64,000 bases of DNA. Source: Peptococcaceae bacterium. GTDB taxonomy: Bacteria > Bacillota > Desulfitobacteriia > Desulfitobacteriales > Syntrophobotulaceae. Positions within the stretch are counted from its first letter, which is position 1. Each line of letters opens with the position of its first letter. The notes beneath the pieces are model-generated. The model did no database searches and was not told where the DNA came from. It saw only the letters and a list, made by a program, of their open reading frames with translations. The DNA is taken from assembly GCA_009783315.1 (NCBI GenBank), contig WRHI01000003.1:1417-65416 (forward strand). Direction: 5' to 3'. Made by a program: the position numbers and the translations under genes. Below are positions 12,445 to 58,478 of the stretch, in pieces.

Positions 12445-12707
12445 AAAGTGCCCAACCGGGGGGTGTGCCGCGTTTCGTGTAAATGCAATAATCAATCCAG
12501 CGAATACAAGGCTCCAGAGTGTGGCAAGAATAGCATTACAGTAAGAGGATAGGAGCTACCGCAGAGGTGCGGTTCGAGCGCTTACTGTGGCATTATTCGG
12601 TATGCGGATAGCTTAGTGGCTGTCCGTTTGTCCGTTTTCTATTCCGGCAATGCCTTAAGCCGTAACCTCGGGGGTCCGGGGCAGCGCCCCGATTTTCCTT
12701 CTATACC

Positions 12708-12788
12708 GATATCCAAACTATGCTGATGTTTTCGGGAACGCCAGTCATTAAGGGGCTTCTCAGGAAAACATCGGCATAGTTTGGATAT
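12708..12788. repeat. long inverted repeat (26 bp arms, 2 mismatches, 30 nt loop)
   Basis: Left arm gatatccaaactatgctgatgttttc, right arm gaaaacatcggcatagtttggatatt. One of the mismatches would be a G-U pair in RNA. Confidence 0.85.
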
Positions 12789-13080
12789 TGAGGTTGAAGT
12801 CCAAAGCACAATCCCCCATGCTTGAATCATTAATAACATGGGGGTGCAATCATTTATGAGAAATGACTAAAACTTGATGATCTCATTCGGATGGTTTTGG
12901 AGTCAATGGCTGAGCAAAATTACAGTCAAAGAACCATAAAAAACTATTGCCACAACTTTAGTCGTTAGAAACACATTTCAAAAGAAATGGGTGTTGACCA
13001 TCCTACACCAGAATTGTTTTCTGTATTTCAGGCCGGTGTTGGAAATACCGAGACCGGGCAACCAGATGTTATTAATCTTT

Positions 13081-13388
13081 TAATTGCTCCAAAAAATCTG
13101 CTATTCGGGGGTATTCATGGGGCATATGTATACAGTTCAATGAGGCACGAGGTAGGGTTTGGTGAGCGGGAGAATCCAAGCGCCTCTTTGCCTGACGCAA
13201 CCTCAAAAGGCGAAAAAAATTCGCGGGCTTTTGGAGTCTCCCGCTCACCAAACCCTACCTCGGGACTGTTACGAGCCCACATAATATCCATCTCCATTCA
13301 CCATTAGATTGCGGGAGAACCGCAGTAGATATTTCTATTTATTTTTTTGTCGCTTCCTGCACTTTGAAAATATGAAAAATATGCACCC
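13081..13388 (+). repeat. ~310 bp dispersed repeat, copy 1, with a central 26 bp-arm hairpin (13148-13262); sits just 5' of metG
   Basis: Nearly identical by eye to 38173-38484. The right half is present inverted at 47941-48107. It ends in the motif cctgcac-ttTGAAAATATG-AAAAATATGCACCC. Confidence 0.9.
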
Positions 13389-13412
13389 GCTTATCGGCTT
13401 ATCGGAGCTTCC

Positions 13413-13442
13413 TTGCGGGTACAGCCTATATTGGCGTATAAT
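13413..13442 (+). promoter_or_regulatory. candidate sigma-A promoter for metG
   Basis: TTGCGG, an 18 nt spacer, then TATAAT, about 45 nt upstream of the metG ATG. Confidence 0.4.
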
Positions 13443-13486
13443 ATAACGATCCCTCTCCATTCTTCCTACAGAAAGGAACTTTTGGC

Positions 13487-22696: not shown

Positions 22697-22702
22697 AATT
22701 CA

Positions 22703-37739: not shown

Positions 37740-38030
37740 TCACCTCATTTTGCTATACTGCGTTGACTCTGACCTCGTTGCTCTTCTTGCTGAAATAATG
37801 CGAATTACCGTTTCAGTTTCTCTATAGCAATGACAGACCACCAAAAGTTTGGCTTCCTTGCTCAGCCCTAAAATAATAAATCTTTCTTCCTCCTCGGCAT
37901 GCTCGGGGTCATCAATGACTATAGCTTCCATGTCATAAAATACTGTTTTTGCTTCCTCAAACGATACTTTATGCTTGGATTGATTAATGCGATTTTTATT
38001 TTCGTCCCACTCAAATCTTATGTCTTCCAT
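37740..38030 (-). CDS. brnT: BrnT toxin (DUF497 ribonuclease)
   Basis: Starts FEWDENKNRINQSKHKVSFEEA..VF.D......DD..H...EER....G.......L.VV...R......RIISAR.AT..E. Confidence 0.85.
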   Translation of the reverse strand: MEDIRFEWDENKNRINQSKHKVSFEEAKTVFYDMEAIVIDDPEHAEEEERFIILGLSKEAKLLVVCHCYRETETVIRIISARRATRSESTQYSKMR

Positions 38031-38660: not shown

Positions 38661-40001
38661 ATGAATGAAACAATTTTGGCGCTTATGAATGAAAACCCCA
38701 TTAACTTGGTGAAGCTGCATGATGTCATCGCGAAGATGAATACTGTGGATATTGCCGAGATTTTTGAGGAGCTGGATAAGGAGAAGACGATCCAGATTTT
38801 TCGGTTGCTGCCGAAGAGTATGGCCGCCGATGTTTTCTCATACATAGTGCCGGAGAAGCAACAGATTATTGTGGGCGCTTTAACGGACAACGAGATCGGC
38901 AAAATCATTAATGAGTTGTTTGTTGACGATGCGGTTGATTTTATTGAGGAAATGCCGGCGAACGTAGTCGAGCGTGTTCTCAAAAATATTTATGACGATA
39001 AAAGACAGCTGATCAACCAGTTGCTGCAATATCCTGAGGATTCAGCCGGCAGCATTATGACCACGGAGTATATCGCCTTGAGAGAGGACGCTTCCGTCCG
39101 GGAGGCTTTTGATACCATCAGGGCGACAGGTATCAATAAGGAGACCATCTACACATGTTTTGTCATTCGGCGTGACAGGCTGCTGGTCGGTGTGATTTCA
39201 GCCAAGGCGTTGCTGCTGGCTAGACCCCAGGACCGTATTGGCGATATTATGGACGCCAATCTGATTCTGGCCCATACCACTGACGACCAGGAACTGATTG
39301 CCGATTTGTTTAAGAAATACAGCTTACTTTCTTTGCCGGTGGTTGACAAAGAGCAGCGGCTTGTCGGCATTGTCACAGTGGACGACGTGGTCAAGGTCAT
39401 TGAGGAAGAGAACACTGAGGACTTTGAAAGAATGGCCGCGCTGAATCCCTCCTACGAACCCTACTTAAAAACCAAAATCTTTAAATTGGCCGGCAACCGC
39501 ATTGTTTGGCTTATGGTGCTGATGCTTTCCGCGACGTTTACGGGGTCTATTATCTCACACTTTGAGGACTCCATCGCGGTTCTGCCCGCCCTCATCGCTT
39601 TTATTCCGATGCTGATGGGTACCGGCGGCAACGCGGGATCCCAGTCTTCTACACTGATTATTCGCGGTATGGCCTTGGGAGAAATCCAAATCAGGGATAT
39701 CCTCAAGGTGATTTGGCGGGAAGTGCGGGTCGGCGCGATCTGTGGCCTCGCTTTGGGTCTGGTGAATTTTGCCCGCATCTATCTCATGAACGGCAAAGAC
39801 GCGGTTATGTCTCTAACCGTGACGCTCAGTCTGTTCTGCACGATTATTCTCGCCAAAAGCGCCGGGTGTATTCTGCCCATCGTTGCCAAAAAACTTAGAA
39901 TCGATCCCGCTATCTTGGCAGCGCCTCTGATTTCGACGATTATTGACGGAACGTCGCTGATTGTCTATTTTTCCATCGCCCGGGTGATCCTGCACGTGTG
40001 A
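38661..40001 (+). CDS. mgtE: magnesium transporter MgtE
   Basis: N-domain, tandem CBS region (IMTTEYIAL..., PVVDKEQRLVGIVTVDDV), and a TM domain with GTGGNAGSQS. ATG 38661 follows an AGGTGA RBS and is preferred over the track TTG 38610. Confidence 0.9.
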   Translation: MNETILALMNENPINLVKLHDVIAKMNTVDIAEIFEELDKEKTIQIFRLLPKSMAADVFSYIVPEKQQIIVGALTDNEIGKIINELFVDDAVDFIEEMPANVVERVLKNIYDDKRQLINQLLQYPEDSAGSIMTTEYIALREDASVREAFDTIRATGINKETIYTCFVIRRDRLLVGVISAKALLLARPQDRIGDIMDANLILAHTTDDQELIADLFKKYSLLSLPVVDKEQRLVGIVTVDDVVKVIEEENTEDFERMAALNPSYEPYLKTKIFKLAGNRIVWLMVLMLSATFTGSIISHFEDSIAVLPALIAFIPMLMGTGGNAGSQSSTLIIRGMALGEIQIRDILKVIWREVRVGAICGLALGLVNFARIYLMNGKDAVMSLTVTLSLFCTIILAKSAGCILPIVAKKLRIDPAILAAPLISTIIDGTSLIVYFSIARVILHV

Positions 40002-42442
40002 TTGATTTGAGCGGATATAAACACGTCTCCGGTTCGGCAATCCATTGTGATAACATCGCCGTCCCGAATAACTTCGGTGGCGTTGTGGACAACCAGGATG
40101 CAAGGGAGGCCGTATTCCCGTGACACCACAGCCGCGTGGGAAAGCATGCCGCCGGTTTCGGTGATAACGCCGCTGATCTTGCTGAAAACAGCCGTCCAGG
40201 CGGGATCGGTGCACTTGGTGACAAGGATGTTGCCTGGTTCGAGCCGGTGGGCGTCGTGGATGTCTTGAATAACCCGGGCTGTCGCTGTGACGGTTTCGCC
40301 GCTGCAGGGAACACCATGAAGGATAGGGGTTTCTCCGGCTGACGTCATCCGGGCCTTACTCATCGCTGCCGTCGTGTGTTTGTTGCCGATTTCGTTGGGG
40401 TTGCTGAAGTTGATGAAAGAGGCGTAGTATTGTTTGTTTTTCGTCAGTTTGGTTTTAACATCAGGGGACGCGCCAGAAGGGAATTTGTTTGTGACGTCTG
40501 GAAGAGCGGTGATATCGTCTACAGTCAAATAGAATATATCATCCGCCTCTTCTAGGACGCCTGCTGCTGCCCACGCTTGTCCTAAAGCTAGAGACAGACG
40601 GCGGATATGATAATAGGAGCGTGTGGAAATGTCGCGGAACTCCTCGCGCCACCAAAGAAAATCCCGTAGTTGACTGATATCCTTGTGCAGATGGCGGGGT
40701 ACGCGGGATTTGGCGGCAAGATATTTCTGGTGCTGTCTCTCAGTCAGGGCCTTGGGATCGCGGTCATCGGGCAATGCGGCAAAGTCGTGGATCATAGCGA
40801 GAACCACCTGGGGCTGTTCGTCCCAATTGGGGTAGGAGACGTCCAGCTCATGCTGGGAGTGATAGCCGTAATCTGATAGGAAATCAGCGAATGCTTCCCC
40901 GGGATAAGCAAGTTCTTTGTCGTGGGCTTTGCTGCTGTTGGTTCCGGAACCGACTGTTTTGCTGCCATGATCTTCTTCCAAGGTTTCATCAATGTGGATT
41001 CGGCGGCTTATGTCCCACATCCGGCAGATCGGGCGCATGTGAGACAGGTCGGTCAAGCCAATCATCAGGTTGGTGATTTCGCCGGCCGGGAGATGTTTTT
41101 TGATTTTATCTTTGAAGAGGGTGGACAGAATCATATTGCAGAAAATATAGCCAAAATATGTGTATTCGGATGTATAGTAGTCGTCGCGGACGAAGCGAAT
41201 CCATAACTTGTGCAGATCCGTTGCGGACCGGCCGGTTAAGTCCAAGCTGCCGATGGTGGTGAGTCGCTGCAGCAGTTCCTGCCGACGGACAGCGGCTTTG
41301 TCGCCCATAATTTTGATATGGCGGCTGATGGCCCTGAGGGTGAGTAAGCCGCGCCAGAGGGTGCGAGGCGTGGTCGGGGTGACGACGCCGTCGCCGGTGT
41401 AGGTAGGAACGACCCCCATATCCTCATCGATTTCGCGTTCGACAAACCCAGGCAATCGGGCGAAGCATTCTTTTTCCAAGGTCAAACGCCAATAAGGACG
41501 CGCAAAAAACACCTCGTAGATGGATTCCTGGTACGCCGTCGGCAGCAGTTTGATGGTTTTCAGGGAATCGAGAAAGGAAGCGTTGAAGACGAGACCGTAC
41601 AAGGAGGCCATCAGGGGTTTACAGGCCGCGGCGGAGACACCGCCGTCGCGAAAATCCGCCGTCGTCCACTCTTGGGGGATGGCCCTGGTGCTGATGGTTG
41701 TGATGGGGCGGCTTTGCAGAATAAAGATACTGCCGTCAGCTATGGCCCATTCCACATCCACCGGGAACCCGTAGAATACCTGGATATCAAGAACGACGGC
41801 GGCGACGGCTTTGACTTCCGCTTCTGTCAGAACCCCGCCTTGGTATGATGTCAAGATGTCGTCGTACCAATGATACCCATAGCTATCCGGGGTGACTTGC
41901 CCGCTGACCAGTTGGTCGCCCAGGCCCCTCACAGCTTCGATGAGGATTTCTTTATCCTTGCCGTTAACGCTGTCGATGGAAAAGGCGACGCCGGATTTGT
42001 CGCTGTCAACCATGGTTTGTATGATGACCGCCATAGGGTATTGGCTGATATCGTTGATGCCCCGGCTTTGTGCGTAGGCCGCTAAACGGTCATTATGAAT
42101 CGATTGGGCACATTTCAGGGTGGCTTCATACACGCTAGCGGTGCCTTTGACATTGAGATAGGAATCATATTGCCCGGCAAAGGATAAGTCAGCCAGGTCT
42201 TCACCGACGCCGCTGCTGCGCACGGCGTAGGCGGTGTTTTCATCGATGTATGCCCCCAAGGTCTCGGTGGTGAAGGTGTTAAGCGGCGCGGTGCCGGAGA
42301 GGCCCCCCAGCTCTGCTGTTGTAACGACGAAACCTCCGGGAACGTTAAACCCGCCTTCTCGCAAGCGAATCAGGTTTTCGGCTTTGCTGCCGATCAGCGT
42401 CGGCCTGTCTGCAACGCTGATAAGGTCATCAAATCTGTACAT
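39965..42442 (-). CDS. PEP-utilizing enzyme with rifampin-phosphotransferase/PEP-synthase-like architecture (ATP-grasp, central domain, swivel His domain)
   Basis: 825 aa. N-terminal PPDK_N-type ATP-grasp (IGSKAENLIRLREGGFNVPGGFVV). C-terminal mobile domain TETGGMLSHAAVVSREYGLPCIL with the catalytic His. Confidence 0.85.
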   Translation of the reverse strand: MYRFDDLISVADRPTLIGSKAENLIRLREGGFNVPGGFVVTTAELGGLSGTAPLNTFTTETLGAYIDENTAYAVRSSGVGEDLADLSFAGQYDSYLNVKGTASVYEATLKCAQSIHNDRLAAYAQSRGINDISQYPMAVIIQTMVDSDKSGVAFSIDSVNGKDKEILIEAVRGLGDQLVSGQVTPDSYGYHWYDDILTSYQGGVLTEAEVKAVAAVVLDIQVFYGFPVDVEWAIADGSIFILQSRPITTISTRAIPQEWTTADFRDGGVSAAACKPLMASLYGLVFNASFLDSLKTIKLLPTAYQESIYEVFFARPYWRLTLEKECFARLPGFVEREIDEDMGVVPTYTGDGVVTPTTPRTLWRGLLTLRAISRHIKIMGDKAAVRRQELLQRLTTIGSLDLTGRSATDLHKLWIRFVRDDYYTSEYTYFGYIFCNMILSTLFKDKIKKHLPAGEITNLMIGLTDLSHMRPICRMWDISRRIHIDETLEEDHGSKTVGSGTNSSKAHDKELAYPGEAFADFLSDYGYHSQHELDVSYPNWDEQPQVVLAMIHDFAALPDDRDPKALTERQHQKYLAAKSRVPRHLHKDISQLRDFLWWREEFRDISTRSYYHIRRLSLALGQAWAAAGVLEEADDIFYLTVDDITALPDVTNKFPSGASPDVKTKLTKNKQYYASFINFSNPNEIGNKHTTAAMSKARMTSAGETPILHGVPCSGETVTATARVIQDIHDAHRLEPGNILVTKCTDPAWTAVFSKISGVITETGGMLSHAAVVSREYGLPCILVVHNATEVIRDGDVITMDCRTGDVFISAQINHTCRITRAMEK

Positions 42443-42446
42443 TCAT

Positions 42447-42992
42447 TTAGCCCTTCTGTCCTCTAAGTTTCATATGGAACAATATGATGTTGAAAAGATA
42501 ATGGGTGGCTGTGGCGATGACAAAGACCCCCAAGGCTTCCTGCCAGGATAAAGGATAGATCAACGGCAGAAACAGCAGGTAGCCGATAACGCTGTCCGCC
42601 TGGTCAAAAAAGGTTTGGACCGCGCCGCCGCTTTGGCCCGGGGGCAAATTCAGACGGCGTTTGACAAAACTGTTCGGCAACTCAAACAGGACATAGGCCA
42701 GACCCAGCCACGCGCCGCAAAGGAAACTGTATGGAAACGCACCGTGCCAAACCAACAAAGCGGCAAAGGCGGTCAGCACAATCATGCCGAAAAACCCTTT
42801 CCAAGTCTTATTATCGCCAAAAAGGCGGTTACCGTCCCGCAGGGTTTTGCCGCCGTCCATAGGAACTCGCCAAGATGGCAACACCGGCAGCTTGACAAAG
42901 ACCATATTGAGAATGGCCCCAATAATACAAGGTAGAATGAGGAAATAGATATGTCCAATAAATTGTACCGATAACAGTATAAACTCTATCAC
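42447..42992 (-). CDS. CDP-archaeol synthase (CarS, DUF46) family membrane cytidylyltransferase-like protein
   Basis: Motifs FGDNKTWKGFFG and NSFVKRRLNLPPGQSG....FDQADSV match the CarS family signature as I remember it. 5 TM helices. GTG 42992 lies 9 nt after AAGGAG; the track TTG 43010 overlaps the RBS. Confidence 0.7.
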   Translation of the reverse strand: MIEFILLSVQFIGHIYFLILPCIIGAILNMVFVKLPVLPSWRVPMDGGKTLRDGNRLFGDNKTWKGFFGMIVLTAFAALLVWHGAFPYSFLCGAWLGLAYVLFELPNSFVKRRLNLPPGQSGGAVQTFFDQADSVIGYLLFLPLIYPLSWQEALGVFVIATATHYLFNIILFHMKLRGQKG

Positions 42993-43007
42993 GCTCTCAT
43001 TCTCCTT

Positions 43008-43034
43008 CAAACAAAAGGGAATTTAAAAATTCCC
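43008..43034 (-). terminator. terminator-like or attenuator hairpin within the operon
   Basis: Minus-strand RNA reads gggaattt-tt-aaattccc followed by ttttgtttg. It lies directly upstream of the CarS-like RBS. Confidence 0.4.
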
Positions 43035-43039
43035 TACCA

Positions 43040-43086
43040 CCCCTAACCCCTAACCCCTAACCCCTAACCCCTAACCCCTAACCCCT
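43040..43086 (-). repeat. (GGGGTTA) x 6.5 tandem array on the transcribed strand; shown as CCCCTAA on +
   Basis: Six perfect cccctaa units plus cccctg, in the intergenic spacer of the minus-strand operon. Confidence 0.95.
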
Positions 43087-43087
43087 G

Positions 43088-43119
43088 CTTCTCAAAGAGG
43101 CCTAAGCCTCTTTGAGAAG
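43088..43119 (-). repeat. perfect 14 bp hairpin enclosing the stop codon of the upstream gene, directly 5' of the G-tract array
   Basis: Reads cttctcaaagaggc-ctaa-gcctctttgagaag. The stop (cta on +, 43102-43104) lies in the loop. Confidence 0.9.
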
Positions 43120-44721
43120 CCTAACTTCCCCACTCCCGCCATCAATGCTAAGCAGATCTCCTGTCTGAATAACAGAGGTTGAGCGGGTGACCGCCACCAC
43201 GGCGGGGATTTTGAGCTCGCGGGAGACGATAGCTGTATGGGATAACAGGGAGCCTTTCTCCGCCACAATACCGGCGGCCATAGTCAGCAAAAAGACCCAG
43301 CCCGGGTCAGTGGTCTTGGTGACAATGATTTTGCCTTTGACATCCACATTGTCATGGGGGGATTCAAGAACCACCGCCGCCGCTGTGACGTTGCCAAAAG
43401 AGGCGCCGACACCCTGAAAGATTCCTGTCCAGTCGGGGGTTATTTTGCTCTCAAGCAGTTCTCCGCCGCGGAAGACGAGGCGCGGCTGCGTCGGTAGGCG
43501 GGCATAAGACGTGTATTCCTCGCGGCGTTGGGCGATGATTCCCTTGAAGTCTTCGGCGCCGCCGCCGGGATTATCCCAAGCGGCAATTTCCCCTACCGTG
43601 AGATAGAAGACATCTGTGGGCGCATCGAGGCAGCCGTCCCGATGGAGGTTGGCTCCGATCGTCAGGAAGATCCGCCGTACCATGCCATAAATGCGACTGC
43701 GGTTAAGACGGGAGATTTCGCGGTTTTTGATACCCAGACGCGCTCTTTTGGCGATAAAACTGTTGCGCAGAGGCAGGGTTTCTTGGCGGCGTAAGCCGTC
43801 AACGATCTGATCAAGCTTGGCTGGGTCGGCGGCGTATTCGCGGATTTTGGCCTCAAGGAGTGAGGGGTCTTCCCGGTATGTGACGGTTTCCAGTTTAAGT
43901 TCGCCGGGGCAACGGTCTCCGTACAGGGCCAGGTATTCGCGCACCTCGGCGGTGTCCGAAAGAGTGGGTTCGGGAGATGCTGCTTCGGCGCCGGTTTCCG
44001 CGGAATTCGCGGCGGCATAGTGTTGGGCGATGTCCAGGAGTTTTGTCAGGGGTTTCAGGCTTTCCAACGCCGTGATGCCGGCTATGCTTTGGGTGACGTC
44101 CGACCCTTGGCGCGCCAGCCGGCGTTTGAGCAGCCCCGTCCAGATGAAGGCGTACATGTCGTTGGCCAGGGTAACGGACCATCGGGTTAAGACGGTGTCC
44201 TTGATTTCTTGGAAAAGAGCCAGCAGTTCTTCGTTGGTCATGGTTTCTTGATAGGTTTCCGCAAAGGTGTTTTGCACGGCTTGAAAGTCACGGTTGAGGC
44301 GATCCATTTCCCGGGGAACGCTGAGGGCGAGCTTCAGTATGCGTCCGTTCATGGCGGCTTTTTGCCGCAGGGTGAATTTGTGACGGATGCCCAGATAGAT
44401 GTCGGTGTTTTGGACTCCCATCATGTCTTGCCAGATCGGAATGATTTTGCGTGAGAAAGGAAGAAAGTCAATCAGGGAGTACCAATTGTTGATGCGATAA
44501 TAGACCCGACCCTGATAGTCTGCGATCATATTAGCAAAAATATCGCTGTATTTGTCCAGGACGACGTCATTTTTTAGGATGGTCCCGACCAAACCCCGGA
44601 AGACGCCTTCATAAGCGATGCGGATGAAGGCATGGGTCAGGGGCAGGGTTAGGCCGGGGTAGCTTTCCACGATGTTGCTGTTGTCGAGCACGGTCCATTC
44701 TGTATGGTTCATAGCATCCAC
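43102..44721 (-). CDS. PEP-utilizing enzyme homolog lacking the ATP-grasp domain (central domain plus swivel His domain)
   Basis: 539 aa. The N-terminus VESYPGLTLPLT aligns with the central domain of the 825 aa paralog. C-terminal TTDPGW...AEKGSLLSHTAIVSRELKIPAVV. Confidence 0.8.
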   Translation of the reverse strand: MDAMNHTEWTVLDNSNIVESYPGLTLPLTHAFIRIAYEGVFRGLVGTILKNDVVLDKYSDIFANMIADYQGRVYYRINNWYSLIDFLPFSRKIIPIWQDMMGVQNTDIYLGIRHKFTLRQKAAMNGRILKLALSVPREMDRLNRDFQAVQNTFAETYQETMTNEELLALFQEIKDTVLTRWSVTLANDMYAFIWTGLLKRRLARQGSDVTQSIAGITALESLKPLTKLLDIAQHYAAANSAETGAEAASPEPTLSDTAEVREYLALYGDRCPGELKLETVTYREDPSLLEAKIREYAADPAKLDQIVDGLRRQETLPLRNSFIAKRARLGIKNREISRLNRSRIYGMVRRIFLTIGANLHRDGCLDAPTDVFYLTVGEIAAWDNPGGGAEDFKGIIAQRREEYTSYARLPTQPRLVFRGGELLESKITPDWTGIFQGVGASFGNVTAAAVVLESPHDNVDVKGKIIVTKTTDPGWVFLLTMAAGIVAEKGSLLSHTAIVSRELKIPAVVAVTRSTSVIQTGDLLSIDGGSGEVRLLKEA

Positions 44722-45611
44722 CTTGTGGCAATAAGGGCCATTTCAATCAGGACGACAGGGGTTTCGGTAATCAGTTCGTAGATTTCGACGCGGCTGACCA
44801 ACTTGAAGCGCTCCGGATTTTTCATGTATTTCACGCATTGGGCCACAAACCACAGGTAGGCCGCGACCACGGCGATGAGACCCCAGCTCCACAGTTCGTA
44901 CATTAATTTGGCGCTGGTAATGAGGTCAAGGGTGAGGATGATGAGAATGATGGCGGTAATTTTTTTGTAGCCGTAGAGTTTGGAGTAGGTGGTATAGGCG
45001 GTTTCGTCCTTGGGCGCGCGGGTTTTGCGGGCAATTTCCCAGATGAGGGCCGGCCAGTAGAGGGTGAGGGCGATGAGCACGTTGTTCAGGGTTAAGAGGG
45101 GCAGGCCGTATTTGAGGCAGGTGAAAGAGATAATGTAGATGTTGATAATGACGTCCACAGGATTATGGGTGAGCAAAGCCATAGGCAAGCTCTTTTGGAT
45201 TTTGGACCGGGCAAAAAACCATACGGACATGAGTGTGCCGTAGATCATCAGCCCGGCGTAGAACAGAAGATTGTTCATAAAGAGAATGTTGAGGGGGATG
45301 GCGACGGTGTTGATGGCAATCAGCAGAATGGCCAGATCGGTTTTCTTAACGCGGCCGGAGGGCAGAGGTCTGTCGGGGAACAGAATTCTGTCGGTTTTAT
45401 AGTCTTTGAAATCGTCAGCTATGCGCAGGCTTAATAGGAAGGCAGCGACAGTGTAGCAGCCGATGATTTCCTGGATGCCGATGTGAAACATGCCTACGTC
45501 GGTGATCAGGATGATCAGGAAATAGATCTCGAAAAAGAGGACGACGGAAACGGCGGAGAGTTTGATGGGCGGCAGCATTTCTTTCAGGTAGATGTTCAGG
45601 CGTTTAAACAT
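44709..45611 (-). CDS. UbiA-family-like integral membrane prenyltransferase
   Basis: About 8 TM helices. The first Asp-rich motif ADDFKDYKTD...DRPLPSGRV fits (N/A)DxxDxxxD...RPL. The second motif is degenerate. Overlaps both neighbours. Confidence 0.65.
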   Translation of the reverse strand: MFKRLNIYLKEMLPPIKLSAVSVVLFFEIYFLIILITDVGMFHIGIQEIIGCYTVAAFLLSLRIADDFKDYKTDRILFPDRPLPSGRVKKTDLAILLIAINTVAIPLNILFMNNLLFYAGLMIYGTLMSVWFFARSKIQKSLPMALLTHNPVDVIINIYIISFTCLKYGLPLLTLNNVLIALTLYWPALIWEIARKTRAPKDETAYTTYSKLYGYKKITAIILIILTLDLITSAKLMYELWSWGLIAVVAAYLWFVAQCVKYMKNPERFKLVSRVEIYELITETPVVLIEMALIATRWML

Positions 45612-46458
45612 AGCTTTCTCCGATCTTTTCGCCCCGGGTGACTTTGGTTTCGATCCCTTGGACTGAGTGGGCCAGGATGTCTGGGTCGATGATGGCGGCG
45701 TCTTGTTTTAGCAGAAGCACGATGCTGGAACCGCCAAATTCGAAGTAGCCTTTTTCGTCACCTTTGCGGGCCGGCGCGCCGGTGTGGGTCTGGATGATAC
45801 GGCCTACCAGCATGGCGCCCACTTCCGCCCAGACGATCCGGCCGAAACGGGCGGTTTGCCAGACGGAGACGTCGCGGGCATTCGAGGACAAGGTAAAGCG
45901 ACCGGTGGCGTTGGTGTTGACGGAGTCCAGGAAACCTCTGACGTGTTTGCGGCTTTCCAGAAGGCTGTCGTCAACGAAGCAGAACCGATGGTCGTCGTAA
46001 ACTCTCAGGCGGAAAACCAGACAGACGCCGCCTGTGTACGTCTGGGCCAGGGTGTCGTCGCGGAGAAAGCGGGCCAGGGTGTAAAGTTTGTTTTTTACGG
46101 TCAGCGTCGCGCCGGGGTTGATGGGGTAGGCCGACATACAGCTGTCCGCCGGCGCGATAAGGTGGTTGGGGTTCTGGTCAATGGTCTCGCGGGTGCGTTT
46201 TCTGGTGATAAAGTCGTTAAAACTGTTGTATCCGGACGGGTAATCCCTCATGTCAATGTTATAGGCGGCTATGAAGGAGGCGATTCTGTTCCGGGAACGC
46301 CGGGTTCTTTGGCCGAGGCCATAAAGTTTGCTGACCAGGGGCAAACGCAGAAACAGGACGCAGAGGCCCCCTAGGGTGGTGTTGTATAGAAAGCCCATGA
46401 GGCTATTTTGATAGACGATCTCCGGCGCGGTGACGCCCGTTTTCCTGTCATGAATCAT
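45604..46458 (-). CDS. psd: phosphatidylserine decarboxylase proenzyme
   Basis: The self-cleavage motif FEFGGSSIVLL (GS[ST] type) lies near the C-terminus. ATG 46458 overlaps the pssA stop (ATGA). The longer track ORF lacks support. Confidence 0.85.
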   Translation of the reverse strand: MIHDRKTGVTAPEIVYQNSLMGFLYNTTLGGLCVLFLRLPLVSKLYGLGQRTRRSRNRIASFIAAYNIDMRDYPSGYNSFNDFITRKRTRETIDQNPNHLIAPADSCMSAYPINPGATLTVKNKLYTLARFLRDDTLAQTYTGGVCLVFRLRVYDDHRFCFVDDSLLESRKHVRGFLDSVNTNATGRFTLSSNARDVSVWQTARFGRIVWAEVGAMLVGRIIQTHTGAPARKGDEKGYFEFGGSSIVLLLKQDAAIIDPDILAHSVQGIETKVTRGEKIGESYV

Positions 46459-47171
46459 CGCAGACACCATATGAGGATGAGCAGAACCGCCAAAGCGGGG
46501 AAGATCGCGTACCAGACGCCTTTGGGTTTGGGAATGCCGATATTGAGGACGTAGAGAACGCCGACAGCGGCGAGGGCGCTCAGGCTCGCCCATTCAGCGG
46601 CAAAGAGCAGAACCACAGGTAGGATTAGGGCGATATAGGTTACCGGCAAACCGCGGTAGTGGGAAGCAGGTCTTGGGTTCGGGGGGGGCGGTGGCTCGGG
46701 GATCGGGTGATCGGGGTTCGAAGGGTCGGGGTTGGCAGGATCCGGCGCCGTGGTGTTGTAATAAGCGAGTCTGATGACGGCGCAAAGGATGTAGAATCCG
46801 TAGATGATGAGAGCGTACCACGCCGCGCTGACTGTGGCGAAAGCTATGATAATGGGAGTCATGCCGAAGCTAACAACGTCGGCCACCGTGTCCAATTGTA
46901 CACCAAAAGCTTTGGCGGCGTCGGTGCGCGTGATTTTTCGGGCAACGAAACCATCGAACAAATCGCAGATACCGGCGATCATGAGGCAGACAACAGCGGT
47001 TTTGAGGGTTCCCATCAAAGCGAAGCAGCAGCTTGCCAGGGAAAAGAGCAGACCGAGCAAGGTCAGATAATTGGCCAGGTTGTAATGGCCGATCAGGATT
47101 AGCTTTTTTGAAGGGGGATTGTCTGATATAGAGGGAGTCTTGTGTGTGTGTGGGTTCTTGGCTGCACGCAA
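46455..47171 (-). CDS. pssA: CDP-alcohol phosphatidyltransferase (phosphatidylserine synthase type)
   Basis: Motif DLFDGFVARK.......FGVQLDTVADVV equals DGxxARx8Gx3Dx3D. TTG start lies 7 nt after GGAGG. Carries a Pro-rich insert TTAPDPANPDPSNPDHPIPEPPPPPNPRP. Confidence 0.85.
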   Translation of the reverse strand: MRAAKNPHTHKTPSISDNPPSKKLILIGHYNLANYLTLLGLLFSLASCCFALMGTLKTAVVCLMIAGICDLFDGFVARKITRTDAAKAFGVQLDTVADVVSFGMTPIIIAFATVSAAWYALIIYGFYILCAVIRLAYYNTTAPDPANPDPSNPDHPIPEPPPPPNPRPASHYRGLPVTYIALILPVVLLFAAEWASLSALAAVGVLYVLNIGIPKPKGVWYAIFPALAVLLILIWCLR

Positions 47172-47345
47172 TTTCTTGCCTCCGTTGCGAACGACTTAAC
47201 TCATTCGAATTGTATAACAAAATAACAAATAATTCAACAAAAAACTCAGTTGTTAGGCAAGGCAGACTGATTGCTTCAAGCATACAATAATCATGGCACA
47301 ATCCTCGGTGTATACGGCGTCTTCAGAGCGCATTAATCCCGATTC

Positions 47346-48227: not shown

Positions 48228-48303
48228 GGGGGTATAGCTCAGCTGGGAGAGCGCCAGAATCGCACTCTGGAGGCCAGCGGTTCGATTCCGCTTACCTCCA
48301 CCA
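48228..48303 (+). tRNA. tRNA-Ala (anticodon CGC), CCA encoded
   Basis: Hand-folded cloverleaf. Acceptor GGGGGTA/TACCTCC with the G3:U70 alanine identity pair. D arm GCTC-AGCTGGGA-GAGC. Anticodon arm CCAGA-ATCGCAC-TCTGG. T arm AGCGG-TTCGATT-CCGCT. 3' ACCA. Confidence 0.9.
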
Positions 48304-48472
48304 TAGTACACCAATTGACAACTCTTAATTTTAGGGGTTGTCGTTTTCGTTTTAGCTAAAAAGATGGCTGAATTACTGTTTTCTCAGGGGCACTTGATAA
48401 CGCTCTCGGATTTGTTGTATCCTTAGTAACGGATACGTCGAAAATCTATGAGTGTTTTGGGAGGCATGTCCG

Positions 48473-48928
48473 ATGAACAAGAAATATATTCTGGCGCTGC
48501 TGGCGGTTGTGGGTATTATCGCCTTGTGCTTATGGCTCCCGGGTTTGTTTGATCAGACAATTGATGCGCCGGAGAATGAGCGTATTGATATTCTGAACAG
48601 CTTCGACGATGTTGCGGAGTATATACGGCAGAACGGACGGCTTCCCGCCAATTATATAACCAAAGCCCAAGCAACAGCCGCGGGCTGGGTTGCTTCCGAG
48701 GGGAATCTGGCGGAGGTGGCGCCGGGAAAGAGTATTGGGGGAGACATATACAGAAACGCTGAAGGTGCTCTGCCCGCGGCGCCAGGAAGAATCTGGTATG
48801 AAGCGGATATCAATTATACATCGGGATTCAGAGGGAGCGACAGGATCCTCTATTCCAACGATGGACTGATTTATGGGACGACAGATCATTACGCGACGTT
48901 TATCGTGATAAAGCCGGAGGATATATGA
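48473..48928 (+). CDS. barnase-type secreted ribonuclease
   Basis: Close similarity to B. amyloliquefaciens barnase: LP.NYITK..A...GWVAS.GNLA.VAPGKSIGGDI..N.EG.LP......W.EADINYTSGFR.SDRILYS.D.LIY.TTDHY.TF. An N-terminal signal/TM segment is present. ATG 48473 lies 8 nt after GGGAGG. Confidence 0.9.
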   Translation: MNKKYILALLAVVGIIALCLWLPGLFDQTIDAPENERIDILNSFDDVAEYIRQNGRLPANYITKAQATAAGWVASEGNLAEVAPGKSIGGDIYRNAEGALPAAPGRIWYEADINYTSGFRGSDRILYSNDGLIYGTTDHYATFIVIKPEDI

Positions 48929-49200
48929 GCAATATCGTTATTCTGAGAAGCGAAGAATTTGCCAGTATTGATGAATTGCATCAGTTGTTAATGGAAAGGT
49001 TGGCGCTGCCGGGTTATTATGGCAAAAACCTTGACGCCTTGTGGGATTGCCTGACCGGGTGGATAAAACTGCCAACTACGATCCTCTGGCTTGGCTATGA
49101 GAACAGCGCGCGAAAGGTCGGCCCTTGCGCGGAGAAGGTGGCGGAGGTTTTTCGAGAGGCGGAGCGGGAAGTTGAGGGTTTTACTTTTATCAGATATTAG
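48925..49200 (+). CDS. barstar (barnase inhibitor)
   Basis: Contains LH..L...L.LP.YYG.NLDALWDCLTGW...P....W, near-identical to the barstar core. Overlaps the barnase stop by 4 nt. Confidence 0.9.
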   Translation: MSNIVILRSEEFASIDELHQLLMERLALPGYYGKNLDALWDCLTGWIKLPTTILWLGYENSARKVGPCAEKVAEVFREAEREVEGFTFIRY

Positions 49201-53849: not shown

Positions 53850-56800
53850 ATGAAACCAAAGCCCCGTTGGTTAACTTTCCTGTCTTCTTTTGCCTTAGTC
53901 TTGTTTCTGAGCTTGTATGGTTCTGTCGCTGATGTTCATGGGGCCGACCCTCAGGAGAAGACAGTAACGGTTAAATTTATCAGTTATAATGGAATCGAAC
54001 AAGTGATTAACAGCGAAGTGACCCGGACAATAACTGTCGGAGAGACCATGATGATCCTTGTTCCGGAGCTGAGTGATTATCCTGGCGGCTGGGTTCCCCG
54101 GGGATGGGTTGATTCTCCGGAAGCCACTTCCGAAGGTATTAATCCGGAGCAGATTCAAACCATTTGGACATCTGACGATATGATTTTCTATGGTGTCTAT
54201 GAACGGCAGGTCAAGCTGATCTTTGAGACCGGCAGCGAGGATGTGCAGGCACCGGAGAATGCATCATGTCAGCAATTCGTTAACAGTTCAGACGTGACCA
54301 GAACTTATGGGGGTCAGACCTTCCGGCTGCCGTCAGAAGTCATCAAAACGAATGCGAATTTTGGCGGTTGGGTTGTCAACGACAGCAATGGCGCGAAGTA
54401 CCCGCCGGAGAGCTGGGCGATCATTGGCTTGCATGGTGCCGACAGCGCCACGATGCAGGCGGTGTGGGAGCCCATTATCTATACGATCCATTACAACAGG
54501 AACGGGAGTACCATGCAGACGCCTCCTGATCAAAAGAAAGCAGCCGGAGAACCCATTATCCTGGCGGAAATGACTCGCGATAATATGGTCTTTAAAGGAT
54601 GGGCCCGTACTTCGGGTAATCCCATTCCTCAATACCCTGTGGATACGTTGTTCAATGATGATAATCAGTTTGACGCGGACGGGAACCTGACTTTATATGC
54701 AGTGTGGCATTATGGAATTTCCTATGATGCAAACGTAGACGAGGGCGATCTTGTCAAGGATTTTCCGGACGATTTTACAGTTGAGTTCACAAACAATCCG
54801 ACAACATTATCTGCGCAGAAGCCGGAACGACAGGGCTATACCTTCCTGGGCTGGGCCAGGTCTGAGAATGCGACAGTGGCGGATTATCATGAAGGTCATA
54901 ACTTTGAGCCGTTGCGTGAAACTTTATACCTGTACGCTGTATGGGAAAGAGATGCTCTTTTAAGTCCTCCCACTGTTTATTCACAGGAAGAATTGCCGTC
55001 AGACTTTGACGTGTATCTGTGCATCGGACAGTCCAATATGGCAGGGTATGGCGCTTCTCCTGAAGACCAGGATCTGTTCGCGATCCCCAACGCTCTCCTG
55101 TTTAATGGAGAACAGTGGCAAACAGCCCAGTTTGATAACGAGAACACGAATCTGGGGTTGAACCGATATAACAATGTTGGGAATCCCTTAGCCGAAAACG
55201 GTCTCAACCCGGCTTTCTATTTTGCTGATACGATGCAGGTCCATTCCCCGGGAAAAACAATCGGCATTATTTCTGACGCTAGGGGAGGTTCTTCCATATC
55301 ACAATGGGCCAGAGGCGGCGATGCAGGCAGAGAATACTTCAGGTCCGCGTGTGAGATGACTCATAAGGCCTTGGAGCAGGGCGGTACGCTGAGGGGAATT
55401 CTCTGGCTGCAGGGTGAGGCGGATCTTACTTTGAACGTGAATGGCAACAATTTGGCGCTCTATATGGAGAGACTGAATAGTCTTGTGGATAATCTGCGCG
55501 ATGAACTGGGGGTTTCGGCGGAACAATGCCCTTTCATCGCGGGAGAGATTCCGTACACGTATACAAGTAACAACATGTACAGTACCTATGACTTCAACAG
55601 CATTCTTTGGAGTTTTACCAACCCGGAACGGAATACAGACTATGTTTCCGCTGCCGGGGAATTGGCATACAGGCAGACTCCGGAGGATCCCGCGGCCGGC
55701 GGGTTGCTGTCGCAGCAAGGGGATCCCACCCATTTCAGCACCTCATCCCAGCGTGAAATGGGCAAACGTTTTGCCGAAAAAATGCTGGACATGCAGTCCA
55801 AAACTTACACTGTCACGTATGACTATTGGGAAAATGGCGGTAATACCGTATCACAACCGATGGTGACGGCGCCCATTGGCACTGAGATCGATCTGACGAT
55901 TTCCAGGGCCACCAGAGAAGGCTGGGCGTTTGTTGGCTGGCACTGGGATCCGGACGCTGAGGAAAAGATGGATTCCTTCACCATGCCCGGGCGCGATGTG
56001 ACGTTGTACGCTATCTATAAGAAAGAGCTGAAGGCAAGTCTTGTTTATTATGAAGGAGCAGAGAAAGTAACCGAAGAGGTTATCAGGGAAATTTTTAATA
56101 AAGATACCAGCGGCAGCCTTCCTTTCCCGATACCGAATTGTGACGGTTGGACGTTCAGAGGATGGACAACAAAAGATATTCCGAACGCTTCTGCGACCGG
56201 CATCATCAGTTCCATGATAATAACCGCCAACATGCCGACTCAAACGTATTATGGTTTGTATGTGCGCGGATTGACTGTCAGTTTCAATGCTGACGGCGGC
56301 GTGCCGGTACCGATCAACCAGACGGGTCGGCCGCAGTATTTCAACAGTTTTGACATCGAGAATAAAACGTGTCCAACGGTTACCCTGGCCGGACCGGTCT
56401 CGAAACAGGGCTTTGACTTCGAGGGTTGGGTTAACGATGTAACCGGCGAATTGTTTGACGCAAACACTGTTATTTATCCCGCCGATCATGAGTCGTATGC
56501 GGCCAGATGGAAATCGGCGCAATCGGATTGGATACTCGTTATAAGCGATGATTTTTCAGGAAATGTACTCAATTCGGAAAACTGGGGATCTCAAAGTCCG
56601 GGCAGCACGAAATTCGGGGTTGAGAACGACAGGTTGTTCATGGGAGACGGTCGTTTTGTCTGGCTTAATGACCAGAACGCTCTGACAGACTATGCTGTGG
56701 AGTTTGCCGTAACAAAGGAAAATCAATACTTCCCGAATTCTTATCTGACCCTCCAATTCAGCAATTCAGAACTCCTGATTTTGCATAAATTATGGTTCAA

Positions 56801-58133
56801 GCCAACCGGCTATGGTATTGTCTCCAGCTCGGCACCGGCGCTGCCGTTGTCATATAAGGGAACGGATGTGGGCGAGACGGTTTATATAAGAGTGGAGGTT
56901 GTTGACGGCCAGATTACTGTTTTCACAAAAGACTCGCCTGGGGAACAATACCAGCAGCAGGGCATTTCGTATGCGGTGGATGGTCTTGCGGATGTCCCCA
57001 CATTTGTCGGTTTTGTGAGTCAGGCAGTTGATCTGTCTATTGGGAGTTTCAGGCTCTATAAGCCGTATCAGGAACCCGCTGATAAAGAGACGGATGTAGC
57101 CCTCGGTATGTATTATTTTGGAGGCTGGTCCGTGAATTCATCTCCCAGTCTTCGCGATCCCTGGACGAAAGATAACAGCACCATTATGGAATATTATAAT
57201 GGTGAAAGGGAACCGTTACGCGGTTGGTATGATCTGAAGGATAATGTGGAGCTGGTCAATGAGCAGCTGGAATGGATGAGTCAATATGGCATTGATTTCA
57301 TCTCGTTTGCGTGGTACTGGAGCGCTGACAATGTGAAATTTGCCAATGCTCCGTGGGAAAATTGGGAACCGGATCATCCCGCGCTTAGCCCCGAGACGGC
57401 CATTCGTGCTTACTGGCAGACGGAGAACAGTTCCAGGATCCCCTACACGCTGTTGTGGTGCAATGAAGGTTCTTCTCCGTCTCCGCGGACACCGGGTGAA
57501 TGGGATGAAATGGTTGAGTACTGGATTGATCGCCATCTGAGCAATTCAAAGTACTATAAGATAGACGGGAAACCTGCCGTGTTTATAATCTCGCCGAAAC
57601 CATGGATGGCCGGTGTCATTGGCATGACGCCTGCCGACATGCTTCAGTATGCGAGGGATAAAGCGATTGAAAAGGGGCTGGAGGGTATATATTTTGTCGT
57701 CTGTACTGATATGAGTCGGGTGAACGATGCCATGCAGCTTGCTCCTGATGCTCTTACCGGTTATAGTTACAGGGCTCCCGACTGGACAGGTTATTCCGAT
57801 CTTGACGGAAATTCCCAGAGGCCTGGATACAGGGGGCAATGGAACAAAATCATGACGGACTCTACAATACCGTTCTTTGTACCCATGAGCGCCGGCAGGG
57901 ATGAAACCCCCTGGGGAGGGAGCAACTTGCCCTGCATGCCAACACCTGATGAATTTGAAACGCATCTGCGTGCCGGATACGATGTTATTACCGGCAATAT
58001 GGAAAAGACAAAAGGTATTGGGATGCTATATGCCTGGGACGAGTACGGGGAAGGCGGGTTTATCGAACCGACCCGGGTGCGGGGATTCAAGTTTTTGGAG
58101 CGCATTCATAGGATTTTTAGAGAAAGGGAATAA
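53850..58133 (+). CDS. secreted multidomain protein: N-terminal paralog module, Listeria-Bacteroides repeats, SASA-type (sialate O-acetylesterase-like) esterase, LamG/DUF1080-like lectin fold, C-terminal glycoside-hydrolase-like (WbsX/GH99-like, tentative) domain
   Basis: 1427 aa with a signal peptide. The SASA motif is CIGQSNMAGYG...LWLQGEAD...HFS. There are several ...GW......LYA(V/I)(W/Y) Flg_new repeats. The C-terminal region reads GMYYFGGW...GWYDL...QYGIDFISFAWYW. Confidence 0.8.
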   Translation: MKPKPRWLTFLSSFALVLFLSLYGSVADVHGADPQEKTVTVKFISYNGIEQVINSEVTRTITVGETMMILVPELSDYPGGWVPRGWVDSPEATSEGINPEQIQTIWTSDDMIFYGVYERQVKLIFETGSEDVQAPENASCQQFVNSSDVTRTYGGQTFRLPSEVIKTNANFGGWVVNDSNGAKYPPESWAIIGLHGADSATMQAVWEPIIYTIHYNRNGSTMQTPPDQKKAAGEPIILAEMTRDNMVFKGWARTSGNPIPQYPVDTLFNDDNQFDADGNLTLYAVWHYGISYDANVDEGDLVKDFPDDFTVEFTNNPTTLSAQKPERQGYTFLGWARSENATVADYHEGHNFEPLRETLYLYAVWERDALLSPPTVYSQEELPSDFDVYLCIGQSNMAGYGASPEDQDLFAIPNALLFNGEQWQTAQFDNENTNLGLNRYNNVGNPLAENGLNPAFYFADTMQVHSPGKTIGIISDARGGSSISQWARGGDAGREYFRSACEMTHKALEQGGTLRGILWLQGEADLTLNVNGNNLALYMERLNSLVDNLRDELGVSAEQCPFIAGEIPYTYTSNNMYSTYDFNSILWSFTNPERNTDYVSAAGELAYRQTPEDPAAGGLLSQQGDPTHFSTSSQREMGKRFAEKMLDMQSKTYTVTYDYWENGGNTVSQPMVTAPIGTEIDLTISRATREGWAFVGWHWDPDAEEKMDSFTMPGRDVTLYAIYKKELKASLVYYEGAEKVTEEVIREIFNKDTSGSLPFPIPNCDGWTFRGWTTKDIPNASATGIISSMIITANMPTQTYYGLYVRGLTVSFNADGGVPVPINQTGRPQYFNSFDIENKTCPTVTLAGPVSKQGFDFEGWVNDVTGELFDANTVIYPADHESYAARWKSAQSDWILVISDDFSGNVLNSENWGSQSPGSTKFGVENDRLFMGDGRFVWLNDQNALTDYAVEFAVTKENQYFPNSYLTLQFSNSELLILHKLWFKPTGYGIVSSSAPALPLSYKGTDVGETVYIRVEVVDGQITVFTKDSPGEQYQQQGISYAVDGLADVPTFVGFVSQAVDLSIGSFRLYKPYQEPADKETDVALGMYYFGGWSVNSSPSLRDPWTKDNSTIMEYYNGEREPLRGWYDLKDNVELVNEQLEWMSQYGIDFISFAWYWSADNVKFANAPWENWEPDHPALSPETAIRAYWQTENSSRIPYTLLWCNEGSSPSPRTPGEWDEMVEYWIDRHLSNSKYYKIDGKPAVFIISPKPWMAGVIGMTPADMLQYARDKAIEKGLEGIYFVVCTDMSRVNDAMQLAPDALTGYSYRAPDWTGYSDLDGNSQRPGYRGQWNKIMTDSTIPFFVPMSAGRDETPWGGSNLPCMPTPDEFETHLRAGYDVITGNMEKTKGIGMLYAWDEYGEGGFIEPTRVRGFKFLERIHRIFRERE

Positions 58134-58165
58134 GAAATTAATCTCGTAAATGAGTCCGATCTGAC

Positions 58166-58203
58166 AAGATCCCGCCCATCCATTCGGATGGGCGGGATCT
58201 TGG
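58166..58203 (+). terminator. strong hairpin downstream of the first giant gene
   Basis: aagatcccgcccatcc-attc-ggatgggcgggatctt. The stem is 16 bp and there is no clear U-tract. Confidence 0.5.
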
Positions 58204-58294
58204 CTTGTAAGTGGAAGGGGATTATCAAGACAGTGCGACATAATGAATACCTTTCAGTGAGAGGGACAGGAGGCTATCTTGTAGAATTTACCAC

Positions 58295-58323
58295 TTGCAA
58301 AAAGGTGCTACAGAGAGTAGCAT
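58295..58323 (+). promoter_or_regulatory. candidate sigma-A promoter of the second giant surface-protein gene
   Basis: TTGCAA, a 17 nt spacer, then TAGCAT. It shares flanking bases with 53745-53773. Confidence 0.45.
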
Positions 58324-58478
58324 GATACACATAGGCGACTACCTGTCGTACAGAAGGATAGGTTTGAGATGTGACCCTGAAAAAGGGAAGAGACTGAGAG
58401 GTGAAGGAAAAGGATAAGGCAAGCGGCAGCATTGTCCGGATCAGGGCTTCGGCCCATACGTTAAGAAAGAGATAGGAG

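Follow-up and report, generated by a model that had tools for sequence, protein, structure and literature searches.

Within a 64,000-nucleotide stretch of DNA from a Peptococcaceae bacterium, hereafter the window (GTDB lineage Bacteria; Bacillota; Desulfitobacteriia; Desulfitobacteriales; Syntrophobotulaceae; NCBI GenBank assembly GCA_009783315.1, contig WRHI01000003.1, positions 1,417 to 65,416 of the forward strand), six intact minus-strand genes lie together at 39965-47171. They encode a PssA-like CDP-alcohol phosphatidyltransferase, a phosphatidylserine decarboxylase (Psd), a UbiA-like prenyltransferase, two relatives of rifampin phosphotransferase (termed RphA and RphB) and a homologue of the cytidylyltransferase CarS (Table 1). 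We put at about even the chance that these genes form one conserved biosynthetic cluster whose product, a non-canonical membrane phospholipid, does not depend on the housekeeping CdsA route. More tentative is the wider proposal that many bacteria, oral streptococci and numerous Clostridia of gut and rumen among them, possess a self-contained, CdsA-independent ‘CarS route’ to prenyl phosphoethanolamine lipids, possibly hybrid prenyl/acyl lipids, in which Rph-type enzymes serve as lipid kinases. From the protein families, motifs, clustering and gene fusions observed, we infer the substrate of the pathway, the order of its steps and a division of labour between RphA and RphB. In the proposed pathway, the UbiA-like protein would place a prenyl chain on a small, probably glycerol-based, backbone. 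In the majority of relatives, an acyl chain would then be added by a GNAT-like acyltransferase together with an acyl-AMP ligase, both missing from the window. An Rph-type dikinase, converting ATP to AMP and inorganic phosphate via a phosphohistidine, would make a phosphate monoester from the free hydroxyl, and the CarS-like enzyme would join this lipid phosphate with cytidine triphosphate (CTP) to give a CDP-lipid. The PssA-like enzyme would then exchange CMP for L-serine, and Psd would decarboxylate the serine head group to phosphoethanolamine.

Table 1. Features of the six-gene cluster, its junctions and flanks, and related loci and fusion entries from other genomes
Feature	Location	Strand	Basis
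RphA, full-length Rph-like dikinase (ATP-grasp, central, His swivel), 825 aa	39965..42442	-	PF01326 and PF00391
CarS-family CTP:lipid-phosphate cytidylyltransferase homologue	42447..43010	-	PF01864, 5GUF fold match
Weak terminator-like hairpin, after heptamer repeat	43016-43035	-	Terminator scan and sequence read
(TAGGGGT)x6.9 perfect tandem repeat, coding strand	43039-43086	-	Tandem Repeats Finder
RphB, Rph-like without ATP-grasp, 536 aa (ATG 44712) or 539 aa (GTG 44721)	43102..44712	-	PF00391 only
Divergent UbiA-superfamily membrane prenyltransferase, 300 aa	44709..45611	-	Fold match, NF010118
Phosphatidylserine decarboxylase proenzyme (Psd), 284 aa	45604..46458	-	PF02666, 131.1 bits
PssA-like CDP-alcohol phosphatidyltransferase, 238 aa	46455..47171	-	PF01066, 49.5 bits
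Sigma-70-like promoter candidate, TTGAAT-17-TACAAT, upstream of pssA	47209..47237	-	Consensus match only
HMG-CoA reductase::kinase loci	L002, L008, L009 (Vibrio), L014, L017, L020, L034, L050, L019-L026 (Paenibacillus)		
CarS-like fusion entries	P0252 (L093 571-2013), P0286, P0301, P0324, P0335, P0364, P0359, P0386		

The gene neighbourhood is shared by a wide range of bacteria. Relatives of the CarS-like protein were found by profile search in at least 589 species-representative genomes, the nearest among the matches listed being metagenome-assembled genomes (MAGs) labelled Oscillospiraceae or Bacillota, and 1514 CarS-like representatives emerged when 1.84 billion cluster representatives were searched exhaustively. 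In 80 fetched loci, open reading frames (ORFs) were called and compared by score with the six proteins of the window, and synteny was counted in the 50 loci that have at least 8 kb on both sides of the carS-like gene. An Rph-like gene is present in 47 of these 50, a UbiA-like gene with an adjoining rphB in 37, a CDP-alcohol transferase gene in 34, pssA together with psd in 31 and the complete set of six in 22, while a search baited with the UbiA-like protein recovered the full set on all three long contigs. Conservation across Bacillota, on which an earlier reading of the window from its letters alone (the sequence-only reading) had made its interpretation depend, is therefore strong. The usual gene order is carS-rphA-pssA-psd-ubiA-rphB, of which the order in the window is a circular permutation, and carriers include Streptococcus sanguinis, S. 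gordonii, S. cristatus, Clostridium lacusfryxellense, Butyrivibrio, Oribacterium and Ruminococcus, together with many MAGs of Lachnospiraceae and Oscillospiraceae.

In its usual form the cluster comprises eight genes, those for a protein of ~365 aa and an AMP-binding ligase typically following rphB. The ~365-aa gene, which falls in no Pfam family, occurs in 46 of 83 loci (L018, L025, L028, L035, L079, L086, L090-L092 and others); a weak GNAT match was obtained for 8 of 12 members of the protein family (best E 1.4e-6), and neither an NCBIfam match nor a PDB sequence match was found. The AMP-binding, fatty-acid-ligase-like (acyl-AMP ligase) gene occurs in 17 of the 83 loci, often after the ~365-aa gene. 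Neither gene has a tblastn match within the 64-kb window, and a Peptococcaceae MAG sharing the gene order of the window contains both. Beyond the six core families, only the GNAT-like gene (46), the AMP ligase (17) and a fusion of hydroxymethylglutaryl-CoA (HMG-CoA) reductase with a kinase (14) recur widely in the 83 loci.

This last fusion characterises some of the variant clusters, which are found in Proteobacteria, Paenibacillus and Bacteroidota. In Desulfobacterales, Pseudoalteromonas, Paenibacillus and Vibrio, a protein of ~800-980 aa beside the CarS-like protein takes the place of RphA and combines an HMG-CoA reductase domain (355 bits) with an EcKL/APH-type kinase; in its lipid context it can be read as an alcohol-making enzyme joined to a kinase. 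Some variants carry added MMPL and PEMT/ICMT genes, and a Chitinophagaceae variant has SCP2 and KASIII-like genes and adjoins genes resembling those of non-ribosomal peptide and polyketide synthases (NRPS/PKS). In the Vibrio variant, the fusion gene is clustered with genes for inositol-1-phosphate synthase, an aminotransferase and a sulfotransferase.

The CarS-like domain is itself found in fusions. One lineage possesses a UbiA::CarS fusion, both halves of which belong to the subfamilies of the window and which is preceded by an Rph-like gene; CarS is also fused to a PlsC-type acyltransferase (n=5), to a PPDK_N ATP-grasp domain and to an NAD_binding_4 fatty-acyl-reductase-like domain, on contigs that are short and offer little gene context. 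We read these fusions as independent evidence that the CarS-like protein acts in one pathway with UbiA, the Rph machinery and enzymes producing acylated lipid phosphates or alcohols. The variant clusters also bear on the possibility that the cluster makes not a bulk membrane lipid but a phosphodiester natural product in soluble or secreted form, for which the synthesis of di-myo-inositol-phosphate by membrane CDP-alcohol enzymes offers a parallel. The inositol-1-phosphate synthase, aminotransferase and sulfotransferase genes of the Vibrio variant and the NRPS/PKS-like neighbours in Chitinophagaceae would suit such a product, as would the involvement of the Rph relatives PigC and RedH in pigment biosynthesis, as indicated by their NCBIfam names. 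Nevertheless, we regard it as quite improbable, given that four of the six window proteins are membrane enzymes, that lipid-related partners (MMPL, SCP2 and the fatty-acid ligase) accompany the cluster elsewhere and that the cluster sits among housekeeping genes of the core chromosome.

The CarS-like protein of the window, read as 187 aa from a TTG codon at 43010 or 181 aa from a GTG codon at 42992 (the start called elsewhere), scores 51.9 bits against PF01864, above the gathering score of 22, and covers positions 8-171 of the 175 in the profile. With 77.7 bits it misses the cut-off (148) of the archaeal CarS equivalog NF003114, and by these scores it is a member of a bacterial paralogous subfamily. 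A profile built from 22 homologues matches only Aeropyrum CarS (ApCarS; 5GUF) in the PDB (E 1.8e-10), and the motifs GD(N/G)KT..G, SF(I/V)KRRL and DQ.D, represented in the window by GDNKTWKG, SFVKRR and DQADS, align with the CTP/Mg-binding loop motifs of ApCarS. Similarly, the structural model (predicted local distance difference test, pLDDT, 86.7) has 5GUF as its sole significant fold match (template modelling score, TM, 0.64/0.75; 27% identity), and the fold search with this model did not retrieve CdsA. The proposal that this protein is CarS-type, and not a CdsA fragment, is thus borne out by its PF01864 score and by 5GUF being its only profile and fold match.

CarS, CdsA, dolichol kinase and phytol kinase belong to one CTP-binding superfamily, and an improbable alternative to a CDP-lipid pathway is the salvage of prenols. 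Here the CarS-like protein would be a CTP-dependent prenol kinase, an Rph-like enzyme would add a second phosphate and the UbiA-like protein would use the resulting prenyl diphosphate, with PssA and Psd either supplying a phosphatidylethanolamine (PE) acceptor or acting independently. Such a scheme would accommodate the CTP-dependent kinases of the superfamily (dolichol kinase, VTE5), the two phosphotransferases, which could give two successive phosphates, and the adjacency of ubiA and rphB, which is constant wherever both occur; moreover, the hosts inhabit gut, rumen and mouth, habitats in which phytol, farnesol and other free prenols would be available. However, the CarS-like protein scores in PF01864 and has CarS as its only structural relative, a CDP-alcohol transferase, which requires a CDP-alcohol, is co-clustered in 34 of the 50 loci, and the fusions to PlsC-type acyltransferases and acyl reductases point to a lipid-phosphate substrate. 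In plants, phytol is salvaged by VTE5 (a CTP-dependent kinase) and VTE6, followed by the UbiA-family enzyme VTE2 or ChlG. This route resembles the cluster in combining an enzyme of the CTP-binding superfamily with phosphorylation steps and a UbiA prenyltransferase, but it includes no CDP-alcohol transferase or decarboxylase, whereas profile and fold both place the protein described here with CarS.

A sequence search of the PDB with the UbiA-like protein gave no match, and its relation to solved structures is seen by fold search only. The AlphaFold model (pLDDT 87.7; predicted TM score, pTM, 0.86) has the archaeal digeranylgeranylglyceryl phosphate (DGGGP) synthase 7BPU as its best PDB fold match (E 3e-5, TM 0.66/0.70), and the other top matches, ApUbiA, AfUbiA and the Rv3806c-type phosphoribosyltransferase (PRTase), all belong to the UbiA family. 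The protein reaches 388 bits against NF010118 (PRK13592 prenyltransferase), missing the cut-off of 443, and many homologues of 53-75% identity have precomputed PF01040 matches. The first Asp-rich motif, D66-D-x-x-D70-x-x-x-D74...R81-P-L-P-S-G (ADDFKDYKTD...RPLPSGR), is invariant in 34 homologues. The model and its fold matches thereby uphold the initial assignment of this 300-aa protein as UbiA-like, and place it closest to DGGGP synthase.

As the closest solved structures to two of the proteins are archaeal DGGGP synthase and archaeal CarS, the cluster might be taken to make a genuine archaeal-type lipid in a bacterium, that is an isoprenoid diether on glycerol-1-phosphate (archaetidylserine or archaetidylethanolamine). 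The top NCBIfam match of the PssA-like protein is also an archaetidylserine synthase, and the UbiA::CarS fusion mirrors consecutive archaeal steps. Despite this, we rate this explanation the weakest of those considered and give it very little probability. The scores of the UbiA-like protein against the DGGGP synthase models NF009521 and NF009522 are 19.9 and 15.7 bits, far from the 296 and 353 required, and the CarS-like protein also misses its equivalog cut-off; the acyl-handling partners, namely the AMP ligase, GNAT-like gene and PlsC fusions, indicate acyl or hybrid lipids. Furthermore, PcrB/geranylgeranylglyceryl phosphate synthase (GGGPS) and glycerol-1-phosphate dehydrogenase (G1PDH) domains were detected in none of the ~36 window ORFs scanned, in agreement with their reported absence from the window, and neither recurs in the 83 loci; a true archaeal lipid is therefore unsupported. 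Of the route first outlined for the cluster, from alcohol through phosphate ester and CDP-lipid to serine and ethanolamine head groups, the general logic is supported by synteny and fusions, and archaeal-type (glycerol-1-phosphate, diether) chemistry finds no support.

The corresponding archaeal segment, consisting of DGGGP synthase, CarS and archaetidylserine synthase and decarboxylase, draws on the same four protein families, and the proposed CarS route would be its analogue in bacteria. It differs from the cluster in that the host here is a bacterium, equivalog cut-offs are missed, GGGPS and G1PDH were not found, two Rph-type dikinases are added, acyl-handling partners occur in relatives and the second Asp-rich motif of the UbiA-like protein is divergent. 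Prenyl-glycerol chemistry of archaeal type in bacteria is likewise represented by the heptaprenylglyceryl phosphate pathway of Bacillus subtilis (PcrB/YvoF) and by the GGGPS and DGGGPS of the FCB group. These systems employ a TIM-barrel PcrB/GGGPS without CarS, whereas the cluster contains CarS and UbiA without GGGPS. In a study of archaeal-like lipid genes of the FCB group, CarS was explicitly not detected in Ca. Cloacimonetes (PMC7852524).

The PssA-like protein scores 49.5 bits against PF01066 (gathering score 22) and retains the motif D(x)2DG(x)2AR...G(x)3D(x)3D at residues 70-98 (DLFDGFVAR...GVQLDTVAD). Its best NCBIfam match is the archaetidylserine synthase NF038087 (80.7 bits, cut-off 240), followed by pssA (TIGR00473) at 66.6 bits, where the cut-off of 107 is missed; serine is its putative acceptor. 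Psd scores 131.1 bits against PF02666 (gathering score 22) and 247 bits against NF001941, below the cut-off of 371, and has the FGGSS self-cleavage motif at residue 242. The Pfam matches and intact motifs leave both family calls in place. A Pro-rich low-complexity insert, APDPANPDPSNPDHPIPEPPPPPNPRPAS, occupies residues 142-170 of the PssA-like protein (window 46662-46748) and makes it ~40 aa longer than homologues of related clusters (194-205 aa).

The bacterial CdsA-PssA-Psd pathway follows the same head-group logic of CMP activation, serine transfer and decarboxylation, and the PssA and Psd of the cluster share with it their ordinary bacterial length and intact motifs. In contrast, the activating enzyme is CarS-type (PF01864) instead of CdsA (PF01148), and is clustered with UbiA and dikinases. 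Ordinary PE synthesis is accordingly a further alternative, in which PssA and Psd act on normal CDP-diacylglycerol, or the CarS-like protein is an alternative CDP-diacylglycerol synthase, and the UbiA and Rph proteins have a separate function such as PE modification or polyprenol recycling. It would account for the best match of Psd being a clostridial-type PSD model, for the PssA-like protein matching bacterial pssA nearly as well as the archaeal synthase, for the CarS::PlsC fusions, which suggest a diacyl-phosphatidate-like substrate somewhere in the family, and for the separability of the modules, some clusters being without pssA and psd. We nevertheless consider it unlikely, because distant taxa share the six genes whether CarS or UbiA is the bait, one lineage has UbiA and CarS joined in a single protein and the gene overlaps described below suggest coupled expression. 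In addition, the whole set occurs in streptococci, which already possess CdsA and which, to our knowledge, are regarded as lacking PE.

Under the preferred reading of a dedicated lipid pathway, the phosphate would be supplied by the Rph-like pair. RphA scores 183.6 bits against PF01326 and 90.6 bits against PF00391, and has the Rph architecture of an ATP-grasp domain, a substrate-binding region and a C-terminal His swivel with the catalytic His. Among PDB entries it is closest to rifampin phosphotransferase (5FBS/5HV1, E 1e-57), and RphB to the Listeria enzyme 5FBS. The phospho-His motif LSH(A/T)A(V/I)VSRE is present in both proteins, as GSLLSHTAIVSRE in RphB and GGMLSHAAVVSRE in RphA. RphB consists of the substrate-binding region and the phospho-His swivel, matches positions 280-821 of NF004882 and, as it aligns with residues ~310-870 of full-length orthologues (40% identity), is without the whole ATP-grasp domain. 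The description of one full-length enzyme and one partner devoid of ATP-grasp was therefore correct. Neither protein reaches the cut-off of 999 for rifampin phosphotransferase (NF041857; 288.9 bits for RphA and 102.8 bits for RphB); the PEP synthase model TIGR01418 is also missed (251.6 bits versus 739.75), and a PEP-utilizers_C domain was not detected, the His domain being C-terminal. The order of domains and the catalytic His are shared with the Rph/PEP synthase superfamily, but the scores lie far below the cut-offs for Rph, PigC and PEP synthase, a PEP/pyruvate TIM-barrel domain is absent and the genes reside among those for lipid enzymes instead of antibiotic resistance or pigment genes.

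RphA and RphB are ~25% identical to one another, and each is 32-40% identical to its own orthologue in streptococci and clostridia; by these identities they are old paralogues. The form of RphB without ATP-grasp is confined to the clade of the window (L001, L004-L006, L086), where it always stands beside a full-length RphA, and in every cluster without RphA the RphB protein keeps its own ATP-grasp domain. Because of this distribution, the truncated RphB probably depends on the ATP-grasp domain of RphA for charging in trans, for which phenylphosphate synthase, a split enzyme with separate subunits, provides an analogy. That RphB is a pseudogene was considered and rejected, as the short form is kept at 52-56% identity in relatives. 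In one related locus (L090, 6613-9130), RphA is represented by a PPDK_N ATP-grasp ORF of 362 aa and an Rph_4th/His-domain ORF of 470 aa, which is either a natural split or an assembly frameshift.

A number of points weigh against a dedicated pathway for a non-canonical lipid. The CarS-like motifs would fit a cytidylyltransferase and a CTP-dependent kinase alike, since both belong to the same superfamily, and the CarS::PlsC fusions suggest that some members of the family simply use diacyl phosphatidate. The UbiA-like protein falls short of the PF01040 gathering score (21.0 bits versus 34.2), and an invariant W191-E-x-x-R-K...P200-x-x-E203 stands in place of the second Asp-rich motif. Not one of the six proteins reaches an NCBIfam equivalog cut-off; by these scores they are members of broad families, outside any characterised orthologous group. 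Most loci were picked with CarS as bait, which biases the synteny counts and is only partly offset by the three UbiA-baited loci, and some clusters are without pssA and psd or without RphA. The reading does not account for the presence of two dikinases, and no kinase would be required for that step if the UbiA acceptor were already phosphorylated, as in archaea.

No published description of the cluster was found in the full-text literature, subscription-only papers being outside reach, in agreement with the initial view that no pathway with this gene set had been described, and NCBIfam (June 2026) gives only generic names for the six proteins. In a review of lipid synthesis in archaea, CarS figures as the archaeal enzyme, and it has so far been taken to mark the archaeal side of the ‘lipid divide’. 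If the proposal is correct, the cluster would represent a second, CarS-based bacterial way of activating lipids with CTP. It would also give a physiological role outside antibiotic resistance to a large and mostly unannotated family of Rph/PEP-synthase-like proteins, with phospho-histidine dikinases of Rph type acting as lipid kinases, a role beyond antibiotic inactivation and pigment ligation. An undescribed phosphoethanolamine lipid would then be present in oral, gut and rumen commensals, including streptococci thought to be without PE, and could affect envelope properties and host recognition. Lipidomics of oral bacteria found PE to be very low, and less prevalent in Gram-positive than in Gram-negative species, and offered no data specific to either S. 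sanguinis or S. gordonii (PMC11052126). The occurrence of the same gene set in these two naturally competent streptococci makes the proposal directly testable in easily engineered hosts.

With regard to the layout of the locus, the ORF listing and a reading of the sequence agree with most of what had been reported. All six minus-strand ORFs lie at the coordinates first given and a motif check of the translations recovered the quoted motifs; pssA and psd share an ATGA (46455-46458), psd and ubiA overlap by 8 nt (ATGTTTAA, 45604-45611) and the carS stop lies 4 nt from the start of the 825-aa gene (42447/42442). The 13-nt overlap reported between ubiA and rphB applies to the GTG start at 44721 and not to the ATG at 44712, which is the start in gene calls of identical metagenome contigs and gives a protein of 536 aa with a second ATGA overlap. 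These start/stop overlaps suggest translational coupling, and thus coupled expression, of the genes concerned. The tight packing claimed for the whole cluster holds for the overlapping and near-abutting junctions, but not for that between rphB and carS, where 91-109 nt separate the stop at 43102 from the carS start (TTG 43010 or GTG 42992). This single loose junction contains both the heptamer repeat and the weak hairpin of Table 1, on account of which the cluster may consist of two transcription units.

Upstream of pssA, whose start is the TTG at 47171, lies a GGAGG ribosome-binding site, and at its 3′ end the cluster overlaps a convergent mgtE gene by 37 nt. A two-unit copy of the heptamer, GGGGTTAGGGGTTA, is located at 10169-10182 within an rsmI-like ORF. 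Horizontal transfer was considered and rejected as a signal in base composition, as the GC content of the cluster (0.53-0.54) is within the range found elsewhere in the window.

The remainder of the window carries core chromosomal genes, including those for PFOR, holB, metG, glmU, prs, mfd, spoVT, yabQ, spoIIE and M23/M50 peptidases, and the SpoIIE, SpoVT, YabQ and M23/M50 genes support the earlier view of the host as a spore-forming member of the Bacillota; it is taken to be a gut bacterium of the Clostridia. A gene for a BrnT-family ribonuclease toxin lies at 37740-38030, and the cluster region is flanked by ORFs for a barnase-like ribonuclease and an overlapping barstar-like protein (48452-49200), beside which lies a tRNA-Ala(CGC) gene (48228-48303). 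Upstream of metG, 1.8 kb (11676-13486) without a credible ORF contain several long hairpins, with arms of 38 nt at 97% complementarity (11876-12004), 42 nt at 88% (13143-13267) and 36 nt (12698-12799); an Rfam search of this region gave no match at gathering scores. At 20516-25030, a fusion of a Ser/Thr protein kinase with DUF5050 is followed by an ABC transporter with two N-terminal FHA domains. Two giant proteins of 1427 and 1587 aa, encoded at 53850-63242, combine SASA carbohydrate-esterase domains and Listeria-Bacteroides repeats with WbsX or DUF4886 domains.

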